Shown here: piece by piece, positions 2,993 through 57,791 of the stretch
Numbering within the stretch: the stretch's first letter is position 1
How the letters are laid out: every line of letters begins with the position of its first letter
Assembly (NCBI GenBank): GCA_017464805.1
Contig: JAFTYE010000010.1
Span: 75,047 to 139,046 of the forward strand
DNA length: 64,000 nt
Source: Clostridia bacterium
GTDB lineage: Bacteria > Bacillota > Clostridia > Oscillospirales > CAG-272
Reading direction: 5' to 3'
Notes under the pieces: generated by a model
The model's input: only the letters and a program-made list of their open reading frames with translations
Database searches by the model: none
What the model was told of the DNA's origin: nothing
Position numbers and translations under genes: made by a program

Positions 2993-3039
2993 GAGAATGT
3001 TTCACAGAAAGTATTCCCCGCTATACGGAAAGGAATCAT

Positions 3040-25874: not shown

Positions 25875-26438
25875 TTATTGCTGTTCGTTTCGAAGCAACA
25901 GGACACATTTCAAAAAGGACGTCAGTAGCATAACGGCAAGGAAAAAGAGTGTGGAGAGCAGGAGACCAAGCGGGGCAGAGTCGGTCGCACCGTAAAAGCC
26001 CGCATCGGCTATGTAGATCTTCTCGAAAAACGTGATGGTATCGTTCAGCGCAAGCCCGAAATTCGCAAAGAAAATGGCAAAAGGAATCTGCAGCACAAGG
26101 AAAAACAACGACCTCCACAGCCAATCTTTCAAAAACGTGCGGCAGAAATAGCCGATGAGGGAAGAGCCCTCCTCCTTCTGTGCCGTAACGATTTTCCGCC
26201 GCACCTCGTCGTGCGACATCTGCCCGCGCAGAACCCAGACAACGGCAACGATCGCCCAGAAAACGAGGTCAAAGATCAGAACCGTCGTGTAAGCCTCGCG
26301 GATCTCGCCGTAGTCAAAACGAGTCTTCAACATACTGGAAAGCGTGATGGAATAGAGAAAAAATGCCGCCGCGTGAAACATGACAAGTATACCCAGCCAC
26401 TTCACGCCGCTTCGAAACGAGCTTGGTGTGATCTTCAT
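25875..26438 (-). CDS. Hypothetical membrane protein (187 aa, ~5 TM)
   Basis: ATG 26438 (MKITPSSFRSG...), 6 nt after AGGAGG. The N-terminal extension in the ORF track would run through a terminator and is rejected. Confidence 0.7.
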   Translation of the reverse strand: MKITPSSFRSGVKWLGILVMFHAAAFFLYSITLSSMLKTRFDYGEIREAYTTVLIFDLVFWAIVAVVWVLRGQMSHDEVRRKIVTAQKEEGSSLIGYFCRTFLKDWLWRSLFFLVLQIPFAIFFANFGLALNDTITFFEKIYIADAGFYGATDSAPLGLLLSTLFFLAVMLLTSFLKCVLLLRNEQQ

Positions 26439-26454
26439 GATCGTTCCTCCTTCG

Positions 26455-26490
26455 AAAAATAAAAGGTGCGTCAACCGGAGTTGGCGCACC
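26455..26490 (-). terminator. Intrinsic terminator forming the expression platform of leader RNA copy A
   Basis: Minus strand: GGUGCGCCAAC-UCCG-GUUGACGCACC followed by UUUUAUUUUU. It ends ~10 nt before the RBS of the 187-aa membrane protein. Confidence 0.75.
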
Positions 26491-26508
26491 GAAAAACGCA
26501 AACTCCGC

Positions 26509-26664
26509 TTGCTGCTACACAAACTGAAACAGATCGGAAGTTGCCTTGCAATCACGCTTCGTGGAATTTGCGTTTTTGCCAATTTCAAAAACGCGATTGC
26601 GAAAAAGGGTAAACCTTCCCCATGCTGGGGATACCCCGATCTTATTATTCAGTTTGTGTAGCAA
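26509..26664 (-). ncRNA. Unclassified long-hairpin leader RNA, copy A
   Basis: A ~156-nt imperfect hairpin. The closing helix pairs UUGC-UACACAAACUGAA with UUCAGUUUGUGUA-(GCA bulge)-GCAA. Starts at the predicted TSS. Paralogous to 35015-35164. Confidence 0.6.
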
Positions 26665-26668
26665 CTTC

Positions 26669-26697
26669 ATTATATCATAATTATGGAAAAATATCAA
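26669..26697 (-). promoter_or_regulatory. Promoter of leader RNA copy A
   Basis: Minus strand: TTGATA (26697-26692), 17 nt, TATAAT (26674-26669), with TGa extension. Confidence 0.65.
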
Positions 26698-34722: not shown

Positions 34723-34763
34723 TAGAAGAAGCCGTGCGGCTATGCCGCACGGCTTCTTCTATT
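34721..34763. terminator. Bidirectional hairpin between convergent lipoprotein and RHH genes
   Basis: Perfect 20-bp stem AATAGAAGAAGCCGTGCGGC-TAT-GCCGCACGGCTTCTTCTATT. Overlaps both stop codons. Confidence 0.7.
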
Positions 34764-34947
34764 CCTTCTGCTCCCGCAGCTTGCTTTGCTCCTCACGGTG
34801 ATTTTGCACGTATTCGCGGACGGCGCGCTCAATCATTGCGGTCTTGGTCTGTCCCACATCCTCACAAAATTCTTCCATCATGTCGTAGATCTCGACGGCG
34901 ATCTGACAATTCAGTGCCCGCGCTATCTTGGTCTTTTGTTTTTTCAT
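34759..34947 (-). CDS. Small ribbon-helix-helix (CopG/Arc/MetJ-like) protein
   Basis: ATG 34947 after GAGGTGA. 62 aa: MKKQKTKIARALNCQIAVEIYDMMEEFCEDVGQTKTAMIERAVREYV, a beta-alpha-alpha pattern. The tracked N-terminal extension crosses a terminator and is rejected. Confidence 0.7.
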   Translation of the reverse strand: MKKQKTKIARALNCQIAVEIYDMMEEFCEDVGQTKTAMIERAVREYVQNHREEQSKLREQKE

Positions 34948-34965: not shown

Positions 34966-34996
34966 AATAAAAAAGTGCGCAGCCGAGGCTACGCAC
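34966..34996 (-). terminator. Intrinsic terminator forming the expression platform of leader RNA copy B
   Basis: Minus strand: GUGCGUAGCC-UC-GGCUGCGCAC followed by UUUUUUAUU. It ends ~12 nt before the RBS of the RHH gene. Confidence 0.75.
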
Positions 34997-35014
34997 AAAA
35001 AACGAAAGCCCCCG

Positions 35015-35164
35015 TTGCTGCGACACAAACGACTTATTCTGCCCGCCTCGAAGCGAAGTGTTATAAGTGGAGCGTTCATTTTTTACAAAAAGTATAGACT
35101 AAAAGTAAAAAATGATACACTTCACCCACGGCGGGGGAAGAGTCGATATTCGTTTGTGTCGCAA
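35015..35164 (-). ncRNA. Unclassified long-hairpin leader RNA, copy B
   Basis: A ~150-nt imperfect hairpin. The closing helix pairs UUGC-GACACAAACGA with UCGUUUGUGUC-(GCA bulge)-GCAA. Starts at the predicted TSS. Paralogous to 26509-26664. Confidence 0.6.
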
Positions 35165-35168
35165 TGCT

Positions 35169-35197
35169 ATTGTAGCATCTTTTTCAAAAAATGTCAA
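35169..35197 (-). promoter_or_regulatory. Promoter of leader RNA copy B
   Basis: Minus strand: TTGACA (35197-35192), 17 nt, TACAAT (35174-35169), with TGc extension. Confidence 0.65.
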
Positions 35198-35200
35198 GTG

Positions 35201-35236
35201 AAAAATAAAAAGCCCTTTGCCGAGTGGCAAAGGGCT
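35201..35236 (-). terminator. Intrinsic terminator of serS
   Basis: Minus strand: AGCCCTTTGCC-ACTC-GGCAAAGGGCT followed by TTTTATTTTT. Confidence 0.8.
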
Positions 35237-35244
35237 TACTTTTT

Positions 35245-56187: not shown

Positions 56188-57791
56188 GTCAAAGAACGCT
56201 TCTTGTCCCTTCCATCACCCTGCCGCTTGAGGCAGGGGAGCGTGAAGCCATTGCCGTAGCCCAATCACGGCTTCGCCGCTACGGTGTTCGTTCTTCAACC
56301 TACATCTATCGCATTTATCGCCGTTCAGTGGATGCGCGGAAGCGTGAGGATATCCGCTTCGTGTACTCCGTTGCCGTGAGCGGCGATTTTTCTGTTTCGG
56401 AGCTTTCGCATCTTGCCTCGCTCGGCATCACTCCTCTGCCCGATGATGGTGTGGAGGTCACACGCGGCACGGATACGCTCCGCGCGCGTCCCATCGTGGT
56501 CGGGACCGGCCCGGCGGGTCTGTTTGCCGCCATGATCCTTGCCGAAAATGGCTACCGCCCCCTCGTCCTCGAGCGCGGCGGCACCGTTGCGGAGCGTGTC
56601 CGCGCGGCCGAAATCTTCGTCCGTAACCGTGTTCTTGACCCCAACGTCAATATCCAGTTTGGCGCGGGCGGTGCGGGCACCTTTTCGGACGGCAAGCTGA
56701 TTACGCGGGTGAACGATCCCCGCTGCTCCTATGTCCTTTCCCGGCTTGCCGAGTTTGGCGCACCTGCCGACATTACCGTGCAGGCCAAGCCCCATATCGG
56801 TACCGACTACCTACGTACCGTCGTTTCCCGCATGTTGGCCTATATCGAGGAAAAGGGCGGGGAAGTACGCTACCACGCTACTCTGACTGATCTGCGCCTT
56901 GGTGCGGACGGCGTACAAGCCGCCTGCGTGGGCGGCGAGTGGATCCCCTGCGGGGCGTTGATCCTTGCCATCGGCCATAGTGCGCGCGACACCTACGCTA
57001 TGCTCCTTTCGCACGGCATTGCCATTGAACCGAAGCCTTTTTCGGTCGGACTGCGGATCGAGCATCTGCAAGAGGACATCGACCGCGCTCTGTACGGCAA
57101 ATTTGCGGGTCACCCAGCCCTCGGACACGCCGAGTATACGCTCTCCGACCGCACGGGCGGTCGCGGTGTCTACACCTTCTGTATGTGCCCGGGCGGTGAG
57201 GTCGTTGCTGCCGCAAGCGAAACGGGCGGCGTGGTGGTCAACGGCATGAGTGCCCGCGCGCGCAACGGCAAAAACGCCAATGCCGCCGTTGCCGTATCCG
57301 TTGACGTTGCCGATTACGGGGGAACCCCCGAGTGCGCCATCGCCTTTCAACGCTCGATCGAGCAGGCCGCCTTCGCGGTTGGCGGCGCGGACTATTCCGC
57401 CCCCGCCTGCCTGCTAGGGGATTTCCTTGCCGGCAAAGAGGGAACAGCTCCCTCCCGCATCCTGCCCTCCTACATGAACGGCGGTGTTCGCCTTGTATCT
57501 CCCGATCACTATCTGCCACCATTTATCACTGATTCCTTGCGGTATTCCTTGCCTCTTTTCGAAAAACGCATCCGTGGCTATGCCACCCCGGACGCCGTCC
57601 TGACAGGTCCCGAGACTCGCACCTCCGCCCCCGTTCGCATCCTGCGGAACGAGGCGCGCGTGTCCCCCTCGGTCACAAACCTTTACCCCTGCGGGGAGGG
57701 CGCAGGCTACGCAGGCGGCATCACCTCTGCCGCCCTTGATGGCATTCATACCGCGCTCGCTCTGTGCGCGCGCTTCGCCCCCATATCTTGA
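56184..57791 (+). CDS. FAD-dependent dehydrogenase (COG2509-like)
   Basis: 535 aa. VVGTGPAGLFAA dinucleotide fold and a C-terminal GEGAGYAGGITSAALDG motif. Confidence 0.8.
   Translation: MSQRTLLVPSITLPLEAGEREAIAVAQSRLRRYGVRSSTYIYRIYRRSVDARKREDIRFVYSVAVSGDFSVSELSHLASLGITPLPDDGVEVTRGTDTLRARPIVVGTGPAGLFAAMILAENGYRPLVLERGGTVAERVRAAEIFVRNRVLDPNVNIQFGAGGAGTFSDGKLITRVNDPRCSYVLSRLAEFGAPADITVQAKPHIGTDYLRTVVSRMLAYIEEKGGEVRYHATLTDLRLGADGVQAACVGGEWIPCGALILAIGHSARDTYAMLLSHGIAIEPKPFSVGLRIEHLQEDIDRALYGKFAGHPALGHAEYTLSDRTGGRGVYTFCMCPGGEVVAAASETGGVVVNGMSARARNGKNANAAVAVSVDVADYGGTPECAIAFQRSIEQAAFAVGGADYSAPACLLGDFLAGKEGTAPSRILPSYMNGGVRLVSPDHYLPPFITDSLRYSLPLFEKRIRGYATPDAVLTGPETRTSAPVRILRNEARVSPSVTNLYPCGEGAGYAGGITSAALDGIHTALALCARFAPIS

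Follow-up and report, generated by a model that had tools for sequence, protein, structure and literature searches.

T-box leaders, transcriptional riboswitches and the trp and pyr attenuators share one layout: a leader RNA with its own promoter, an intrinsic terminator before the ribosome-binding site (RBS) of the gene, a competing antiterminator, and a third, sequestering segment. The rep genes of pT181, pIP501 and pAMbeta1 are controlled by antisense RNA-mediated transcription attenuation, where a loop-nucleated RNA:RNA helix of about 15 bp on the nascent leader decides whether the terminator forms. H-type pseudoknot riboswitches (SAM-II, preQ1-II/III, guanidine-III) set the genetic outcome by pairing a hairpin loop with a segment further 3'. 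Here we describe a structured RNA that occurs twice (copies A and B) in a 64,000-nt stretch of DNA from a Clostridia bacterium (Oscillospirales; GenBank assembly GCA_017464805.1, contig JAFTYE010000010.1, positions 75,047 to 139,046), hereafter the window. We interpret it as a cis-acting transcription attenuator, a leader RNA of a previously undescribed family, and put the probability of this reading at about 55%.

The principle is the known one of terminator/antiterminator attenuation; what is unusual is the anti-antiterminator formed by an apical loop and a 3' tail, the built-in promoter and the heterogeneity of the genes downstream. Members of the family follow a common layout, consisting of a promoter, an imperfect hairpin of 31-49 bp (helices P1, P2 and P3), an apical loop, a linker containing CAA, a 15-nt tail, and a terminator. 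Unlike in T-box leaders, riboswitches and trp/pyr attenuators, the part of the anti-antiterminator is predicted to fall to the apical loop at the tip of a long rod and not to the P1 3' strand of a compact aptamer. A specifier loop, a T-box sequence and a conserved leader peptide are absent, we recognised no PyrR-, TRAP- or RAT-type sites, and the downstream genes are functionally incoherent. In pT181-type systems the regulator is a separate antisense RNA, whereas here the apical loop of the same transcript plays the "antisense" part; a counter-transcript promoter is lacking, the context is chromosomal, and the genes are diverse. H-type pseudoknots have a short closing stem with the 3' strand directly after it, whereas here P1 and P2 (~25-30 bp) intervene, the helix is as long as 15 bp, and we see no evident ligand pocket.

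These RNAs add to the known repertoire a structured family with covariation in four helices and with conservation above that of neighbouring enzyme genes. To our knowledge, almost no RNA regulators have been described in the uncultured Oscillospiraceae and other Clostridia of gut and rumen. The predicted architecture is itself unusual, in that the promoter is an integral part at a fixed register and the tip of a long rod, in place of a compact aptamer, would capture the strand that controls the terminator.

Collection of members

We scanned 185,579 species genomes with a DNA pattern that required both P1 strands and the linker, which returned 16 loci. Twelve of these were true homologues, all in metagenome-assembled genomes (MAGs) of Oscillospiraceae, Ruminococcus, Clostridia or Eubacteriales; the remaining four were chance matches in coding DNA of unrelated bacteria and were discarded. 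A pattern scan of metagenomes added 23 members, chiefly from human gut and rumen, while scans of viral contigs and BLAST against phage records added two each. Because the DNA patterns fix part of P1 and the linker, we also retrieved members by way of proteins, so that the family was recovered by two DNA patterns and, independently, via neighbouring proteins. It comprises at least 42 distinct members from Oscillospiraceae and Clostridia MAGs, gut and rumen metagenomes, and a few phage-labelled contigs. A sequence-only reading of the window had proposed that copy A has a second copy nearby and is a regulatory RNA for which homologues with covariation should exist, and both expectations were borne out. 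The family profile (nhmmer) recovered all collected members and gave exactly two matches in the window, copies A and B, and compensatory changes were found across the family.

The pairing figures given below for P1, the loop:tail helix and the terminator are based on an alignment of 42 sequences (A4), and the architecture of individual members on constrained folding of every member. MAFFT and RNAalifold failed to align P2 and P3. We therefore assessed these two helices by folding energies instead of alignment columns, comparing the duplex energy of each strand with its own partner and with the partners of other members.

Three helices competing for the same strands

The best-supported switching partner of the tail, and a feature that had been missed by the sequence-only reading, is the apical loop. 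In copy A the loop segment AAAAACGCAAAUUCC (26577-26563) is the reverse complement of the tail GGAGUUUGCGUUUUU (26506-26492) apart from a single G-U pair. Pairing in this 15-bp helix amounts to 93-94% over the family, and both sides are changed in 7 of the 15 pairs; none of 500 shuffles reached as high a value, and sliding the partner by 1-3 columns lowered pairing to 35-58%. Other members maintain the helix with different sequences, such as CGCGGAUUCC/GGAAUCCCGCG in locus L015 and UGCAUGCUC/GGAGCAAUGCG in L021, and the differences between copy A and copy B (loop UGAACGCUCC, tail GGGGGCUUUCG) are compensatory. Within the window, the best complement of each copy's loop is its own tail. The only other window site resembling the complement of the copy A loop is 57269-57284 (GGCATTGGCGTTTTTG, two mismatches), a count within chance expectation.

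The tail has a second partner. The sequence-only reading had proposed an antiterminator in which CGGAGUU pairs with AACUCCG of the terminator, and this helix is upheld, covaries, and is longer than proposed. The linker and the 5' half of the tail (GCAAUCGGAGUU.GCG) pair with the upper 5' arm of the terminator, its loop, and the first bases of its 3' arm (CGC.AACUUCGGUUGC), giving a plain helix with a UUUUUCGGUG loop. The 15 pairs are 88-93% paired, and seven are changed on both sides. In copy A the partner of the tail within the terminator is 26482-26472 (AACUCCGGUUG). The same linker and tail bases allow a further local fold in copy A: at 26498-26512, the linker GCAA also pairs with UUGC inside the tail in a mini-hairpin of 4-6 bp followed by U5, which was flagged by a terminator scan and is possibly a fourth, weak alternative fold or a pause hairpin.

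Antiterminator and terminator both use the terminator 5' arm. The base of the terminator is 98.8% paired, with both sides changed in four of six pairs, and its loop is usually UNCG. One tail column (U/C) covaries both with a loop column (AU, GC, GU) and with a terminator column (UA, UG, CG), a pattern characteristic of a strand that alternates between two partners. The pairing and covariation figures show three predicted helices that compete for the same strands, each of them maintained by selection, and the element appears to be a three-state switch between loop:tail, tail:terminator-top and terminator pairing. Mean energies over 34 members are -15.9 kcal/mol for the terminator, -19.8 kcal/mol for the extended antiterminator and -18.2 kcal/mol for the loop:tail duplex. 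From these values, the antiterminator would be favoured when loop:tail pairing is absent, and the terminator would be unopposed when it is present.

Two further interactions of the loop were considered and rejected. Pairing with the downstream RBS was no better than chance, with mean energies of -7.3 kcal/mol for a member's own RBS, -7.4 kcal/mol for those of other members and -7.7 kcal/mol for shuffled sequences. A U-A-U triple helix between the U-rich 5' segment of the loop and the A5:U5 end of the loop:tail helix was dropped on reasoning, because the segment runs antiparallel to the purine strand, the wrong polarity for a pyrimidine-motif triplex.

Promoter and rod

The promoter is part of the conserved unit: TTGaca, a 17-nt spacer, TGnTATAAT, exactly 5 nt, and then the UGC that opens P1 were found in 36 of 36 members. 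The near-consensus promoter that had been read ahead of copy A is upheld. Eleven of its 12 positions agree with the consensus, and scanning 550 nt turned up no other promoter-like site. The predicted transcription start is G26662 or U26663.

A long hairpin directly behind the promoter had also been proposed, and in copy A it lies where expected, with a fold of -94.6 kcal/mol against -58.2 +/- 4.4 kcal/mol for shuffled sequences (z = -8.2; none of 200 shuffles as good). Its limits differ from those proposed, however, as the hairpin starts at U26663/G26662, five bases past the -10 element, and ends at A26513 (26663-26513), leaving GCAA (26512-26509) outside. The closing helix as it had been drawn, with a bulged GCA and a paired GCAA, is not supported: the base of P1 is an unbulged UGC...GCA, GCAA is an unpaired linker, and the base before UGC is not conserved in the family.

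P1 comprises 10-21 bp beginning at the first transcript base, and is followed by an A/U-rich bulge of 3-8 nt in the 5' strand (UAAUAA in copy A, ahead of P2). Over the 42 sequences it is 98.3% paired, with both sides changed in 7 of 13 pairs. Between the window copies, the fourth position is G-C in copy B and U-A in copy A. Among protein-retrieved members P1 varies compensatorily (GCCAAACAA/UUGUUUGGC, GUCACACAA/UUGUGUGAC and ACACGAAC/GUUCGUGU), and the linker is GACAA or AACAA instead of GCAA.

P2 (6-15 bp) and P3 (10-17 bp) cannot be aligned by sequence, and it is their energies that support them. The P2 flanks form a duplex of -14.8 kcal/mol with their own partner against -7.8 kcal/mol with the partners of other members; for P3 the values are -20.2 and -8.6 kcal/mol, and the own partner was the best in 21 of 34 cases. 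P2 of copy A is the GAUCGG/CCGAUC helix that had been recognised in the sequence-only reading. The apical U-tract/A-tract hairpin proposed for copy A can form there, but the family-wide P3 is a longer helix of the GCAAUCGCGUUUU/ACGAAGCGUGAUUGC type. UCCAC had been placed in an internal loop on the 3' side; in the family structures, the A-tract and UCC(AC) belong instead to the large apical loop. Similarly, a GGGG/CCCC/GGGG triplet capable of alternative hairpins is indeed present in copy A but is private to it, being lost in the closest orthologue (L043).

In long members the 5' strand alone carries an insertion of 20-40 nt, a side domain that has CCCUUUUUU at its end; the short members (L021, L027, L035, L041, L042 and L053), whose hairpins measure 110 nt, are without it. 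Two pairings within the side domain, GGUAU/AUACC and GGG/CCC, did not beat shuffle controls and were rejected. The middle of the RNA, comprising the side domain, P2 and P3, is dispensable or hypervariable.

The apical loop spans 25-38 nt and carries UGAAUUUGG-Y-AAAAA-YGC-AAAUUCC. Conserved unpaired bases occur in its 5' half (UGAAUUUGG) and in the CAA of the linker. Of the conserved bases that we found, most belong to the switching helices, to this 5' loop half or to the P1 base. A local hairpin within the loop (GAAUUUG/CAAAUUC) was 70.6% paired with weak controls, and we treat it as a possibility, not as a feature. We identified no conserved junction or internal-loop pocket in the family structures and no conserved small open reading frame (ORF) with an RBS, as for a leader peptide, inside the RNA.

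Comparison with described RNA classes

The element had been regarded as unclassified, and the Rfam search agrees. All 4,227 models of Rfam 15 (including riboswitches, raiA, ROOL, GOLLD, OLE and HEARO) gave no match at the gathering score in the window and tRNAs only in 20 member loci (132 kb). At E <= 10, the 451 nt around either copy matched nothing relevant, with no 6S, T-box, riboswitch or large noncoding RNA (ncRNA) model among the results; the best sub-threshold scores were 20-28 bits, against thresholds of 44-229, and all fell on terminators. For the T-box model (RF00230), the absence of a match at either setting is accompanied by an absence of aminoacyl-tRNA synthetase and amino-acid genes downstream. 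The family is not described in the literature consulted, including large-scale ncRNA discovery work, with the human-microbiome RNA catalogue covered for 200 of its 408 supplementary files. The single sequence-string match in the literature was to an isaB primer and was set aside. On this basis, and judged from sequence comparison, the RNA is a genuine family of structured leader RNA absent from Rfam.

The resemblance to 6S RNA (RF00013) consists of a length of ~200 nt, 5' and 3' regions paired into a rod, and the RNA's own promoter. It had been called superficial, and we agree, as the 6S model did not match either copy even at E <= 10. Unlike 6S RNA, the rod is without a two-sided central bubble: its interruptions are one-sided, on the 5' strand (for example 5/2, 19/0 and 33/0 nt, 5' side/3' side), and in short members the helix is nearly uninterrupted. 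The pairing between loop and 3' tail is conserved here and not in 6S RNA.

Two other systems share the order or the distribution of parts. In type III toxin-antitoxin systems such as ToxI-ToxN, a promoter, a structured RNA, a terminator, and an RBS with a protein gene follow in the same order, and the terminator sets the ratio of RNA to protein. We rejected a ToxI-like identity; the RNA is a single hairpin unit without internal tandem repeats (~34-36 nt expected), and the downstream proteins gave no ToxN/AbiQ-type match and are mutually unrelated. The c-di-GMP-I and -II riboswitches of Clostridia likewise occur in many copies per clade before heterogeneous genes, their regulons comprising surface, membrane and hypothetical genes. 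They have no sequence or structure similarity to the present family, however, and the Rfam GEMM models gave no match.

Genomic context and downstream genes

In 27 of 33 distinct loci the terminator is followed, at a distance of no more than ~26 nt, by a co-oriented RBS and start codon. The layout read in copy A, with a terminator followed by an RBS and no room for a promoter between them, is thus confirmed and typical. In ~80% of loci there is no promoter space between RNA and gene, and every downstream gene found is co-oriented with the RNA, with locus L042 as the sole exception. As in attenuating leaders, a terminator stands between promoter and gene, an exclusive and covarying antiterminator opposes it, and a co-oriented gene without a promoter of its own follows directly. 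This arrangement shows the downstream gene to be reachable, as far as the predicted signals go, solely by read-through of the terminator. At L052, a GC-richer, unrelated segment of ~370 bp (L052:2662-3040), which may be a small insertion element, separates the RNA terminator from the conserved RBS context of the downstream gene.

The gene after copy A encodes a 187-aa membrane protein with no Pfam, NCBIfam or PHROG family match and is presumably the gene that copy A regulates. A MoxR operon follows it, and the RNA had been linked to that operon; the link is incidental, because other members precede unrelated genes. In a relative, the orthologous locus (fumarase / malic enzyme / RNA / membrane protein, the last 65% identical) carries the RNA. 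Nucleotide identity between L043 and the window is 91% for the RNA, 86% for the malic-enzyme coding sequence, 69% for the downstream coding sequence and 59% for the upstream spacer. In a distant relative (L045:1-1070), the orthologue of the membrane protein (54% identity) lies 18 nt after another gene in an operon, without a leader RNA. The association between RNA and gene is therefore lineage-specific, and the RNA is not tied to the membrane-protein gene.

Copy B precedes a gene for a 62-aa ribbon-helix-helix (RHH) protein, which is monocistronic, the next gene being convergent. The gene serS lies upstream of copy B, not downstream. A 12-bp hairpin between the two (35210-35237) is perfectly symmetric, is flanked by a U-tract on either side, and resembles a bidirectional terminator.

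Downstream products across the family are heterogeneous, including MazE/AbrB-like, RHH, dockerin, Zn-ribbon membrane, acyltransferase, bPH, SHOCT, lipoprotein and small membrane proteins, as well as a methylase-like product on a phage-labelled contig. The only recurring theme is the frequency of Cys-rich or Zn-ribbon products. Most prominent is a Cys-rich family of ~65 aa (MSKNIPKKVIDITGVELTPGEPxVCLGNGEQGFECCCDECDYYLLCFPEFD, with six invariant or near-invariant Cys), which comprises 1109 clusters at E <= 1e-3 and has no Pfam, NCBIfam or PHROG match. The AlphaFold2 model of the protein was uninformative (predicted local distance difference test score, pLDDT, 46). These genes stand alone, and the RNA lies ahead of them in every locus sampled. 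At L024:1-980 the whole cassette of promoter, RNA, terminator and Cys-rich gene is present in tandem, with AACAA as the linker of the second copy; a tRNA gene (1098-1171) follows the tandem cassettes.

Some members lie on mobile DNA. The short-form members in L041:2300-4603 and L042:2270-3446 (IMG/VR contigs) adjoin tyrosine integrases and genes for Cro/CI-type helix-turn-helix proteins, and the member in L054:91-2829 ("UNVERIFIED Bacteriophage sp.") adjoins a tRNA and lies upstream of a methylase-like ORF and an ORF assigned by eye to the DUF262 type. From these three loci, the element also serves genes on integrated or mobile DNA. No plasmid match to the RNA was found. The phage-labelled record MT835845 (L053) looks chromosomal, with a ClpB fragment and lipoproteins.

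Proposed mechanism

Under the attenuator reading, the strong sigma-70 promoter would fire at the first base pair of P1, leaving the 5' end of the transcript fully paired. The rod P1-P2-P3 would fold and present the large apical loop, and the 15-nt tail, emerging directly after P1, would then have two pairing options. Paired with the apical loop in the 15-bp long-range helix, it would act as an anti-antiterminator; the terminator would form, transcription would stop at the U-tract, and a stable RNA of ~210 nt would be released. Alternatively, tail and linker would pair with the terminator top, from the upper 5' arm through the UNCG loop to the start of the 3' arm, and this antiterminator would let RNA polymerase continue into the gene, whose RBS follows after 10-25 nt.

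We infer that the choice between stop and read-through is regulated. The input would act on the availability of the apical loop, either through a protein or RNA that binds its conserved 5' half (UGAAUUUGG-Y-AAAA) or through kinetics at the pause-like U5 tract. A change of the loop from AAAAACGC to UUUUUGCG would be expected to raise read-through. A gene-specific metabolite is not favoured as the signal, since the controlled genes share no function, the conserved bases lie mostly in switching helices, and no pocket was identified.

Several points weigh against an attenuator. The rod of 31-49 bp has the loop at one end and the tail at the other, with ~6 nt joining them, so an intramolecular loop:tail helix requires the rod to fold back, or else the helix forms between molecules. 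The hinge for such a fold-back would presumably be the conserved 5'-strand bulge or the side-domain insertion, as judged from the modelled structures. Strong terminators and a near-consensus promoter are what a stand-alone small RNA (sRNA) gene would have, and the helix that we read as an antiterminator could be the fold that the 3' part of the released RNA adopts at rest. One locus (L042) is followed by a convergent ORF only, without a co-oriented gene, and in four to five loci the next gene is 80-380 nt away (150-380 nt in L002, L012, L028 and L052). The sample also limits the argument: all members come from MAGs and metagenomes, none could be traced to a cultured organism, and the apparent invariance of P1 and linker is partly imposed by the search patterns, as protein-retrieved members do vary there. 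The sequences are related, and significance is therefore overstated by the shuffle controls; slid partners and the comparison of own with cross energies provide the more robust evidence.

Alternative explanations

The strongest competitor, which we consider clearly less probable than an attenuator, is a stand-alone sRNA that acts in trans or associates with itself in head-to-tail dimers or chains through loop:tail pairing, with read-through being incidental. The near-consensus promoter, fully paired 5' end, strong terminator and conservation above neighbouring genes suit such an RNA, as does the lack of a co-oriented gene at L042. A head-to-tail homodimer would fit the loop:tail geometry at any rod length (31-49 bp) and therefore supports self-association in particular, and some large bacterial ncRNAs do form homo-oligomers. 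Independent sRNA genes, however, would be expected to have random orientation and spacing relative to the next gene, whereas the downstream gene is co-oriented everywhere but at L042 and usually has no promoter space. Furthermore, the helix competing with the terminator is maintained by selection, complementarity between loop and RBS is at chance, and no common trans target is evident because loop and tail sequences differ between copies A and B.

A small-molecule or ion riboswitch, in which the loop:tail helix, the unpaired loop bases and the base of P1 form a pocket and a ligand (a second messenger, a metal ion or Mg2+) switches the gene off, seems rather improbable to us. Its logic of pseudoknot, antiterminator and terminator is that of transcriptional riboswitches, the RNA is highly conserved, multiple copies before heterogeneous envelope or surface genes recall c-di-GMP regulons, and many downstream products are Cys-rich or Zn-ribbon proteins. 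Against this stand the lack of an apparent junction or internal-loop pocket in an RNA whose middle is dispensable or hypervariable, and of a pathway common to the downstream genes. The loop:tail helix, already 15 bp and ~-18 kcal/mol, is also far above usual ligand-dependent helices.

A mobile repeat or portable promoter cassette, similar to a miniature inverted-repeat transposable element with P1 as its terminal inverted repeats, is very unlikely, judging from covariation, identity between copies and the extent of the conserved unit. Multiple copies, the tandem duplication in L024, the proximity of integrases on IMG/VR contigs, the occurrence in phage-labelled records and the heterogeneous downstream "cargo" are all in keeping with mobility. 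Selection acts at the level of RNA, however, because the helices use G-U pairs on the transcribed strand only and covary, and the conserved unit exceeds the inverted repeat, reaching to the promoter at one end and to tail and terminator at the other. The window paralogues A and B are 61% identical and differ throughout the interior, whereas syntenic orthologues are 89-91% identical, which argues for vertical inheritance and not recent transposition. The absence of a plasmid match also counts against a mobile repeat.

That the element is a divergent RNA of the 6S type, sequestering RNA polymerase by mimicking an open promoter and present as two paralogues like those of Bacillus, is scarcely credible despite the length of ~200 nt, the rod with paired ends, the own promoter and the two window copies, since there was no Rfam 6S match (either copy at E <= 10; 20 loci at gathering score) and no two-sided bubble, conservation is highest in the apical loop and 3' tail, the hairpin of short members is 110 nt, and copies can be tandem and precede a gene.

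We also offer a more speculative and doubtful reading, in which the RNAs are a class of sensor whose loop:tail helix forms on rod fold-back or head-to-tail pairing, and which answers a global signal (a second messenger, metal or thiol state, or its own concentration). Such a class might govern scattered genes for small proteins of the Cys-rich, Zn-ribbon and envelope kinds as one regulon in uncultured Oscillospirales and their prophages, with the Cys-rich family of ~65 aa among them. The RNA raises a concrete structural question, fold-back or dimer, and its interest would be high if either the signal or the mode of self-association were demonstrated. A signal, if found, would lend a shared physiological context to small uncharacterised genes, including the large Cys-rich family. 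The element could also serve as a compact natural expression-control cassette in organisms for which genetic tools are missing.

Coordinates of the two copies and associated genes

Table 1. Positions of promoter, RNA parts and downstream genes for copies A and B (window coordinates), with loci of the Cys-rich family.
Feature	Position	Strand	Remark
Copy A promoter	26669..26697	-	-35 TTGATA 26697-26692; 17-nt spacer; extended -10 TGnTATAAT 26677-26669 (TATAAT 26674-26669)
Copy A RNA, predicted 5' end to end of U-tract	26455..26663	-	~209 nt; nhmmer E = 7e-50 against family profile
Copy A P1, 5' strand UGCUACACAAACU	26651..26663	-	pairs with 26513-26525
Copy A P1, 3' strand AGUUUGUGUAGCA	26513..26525	-	pairs with 26651-26663
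Copy A P2, 5' strand GAUCGG	26636..26641	-	pairs with CCGAUC 26532-26537
Copy A 5'-side insertion: side domain "P2a" and CCCUUUUUC junction	26601..26635	-	missing from short members (~110-nt hairpins)
Copy A P3, 5' strand GCAAUCGCGUUUU	26588..26600	-	pairs with 26548-26562
Copy A apical loop	26563..26587	-	segment 26577-26563 (AAAAACGCAAAUUCC) pairs with tail
Copy A linker GCAA, P1 to tail	26509..26512	-	in extended antiterminator, pairs with UUG(C) of terminator 3' arm
Copy A tail GGAGUUUGCGUUUUU, switching strand	26492..26506	-	partner: apical loop or terminator top
Copy A intrinsic terminator	26455..26490	-	stem 26490-26465; UCCG loop; U-tract 26464-26455
187-aa membrane-protein gene, then MoxR operon	25875..26450	-	RBS GGAGG 26450-26446; ATG 26438
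Copy B promoter	35169..35197	-	TTGACA, 17 nt, TACAAT, TG extension
Copy B RNA	34969..35163	-	nhmmer E = 2e-29; fold z = -7.95; layout as in copy A
Copy B P1	35163-35152 with 35030-35019	-	position 4 is G-C
Copy B loop segment	35084-35069	-	loop UGAACGCUCC
Copy B linker	35018-35015	-	
Copy B tail	35013-34997	-	tail GGGGGCUUUCG
Copy B terminator	34996-34975	-	U-tract 34974-34969
62-aa ribbon-helix-helix protein gene	34759..34947	-	start 22 nt past copy B U-tract; Pfam RepB-RCR_reg, E = 1e-4
Cys-rich family loci	L036:4153-4350; L024:268-404 and 773-975; L046-L052 around position 3001

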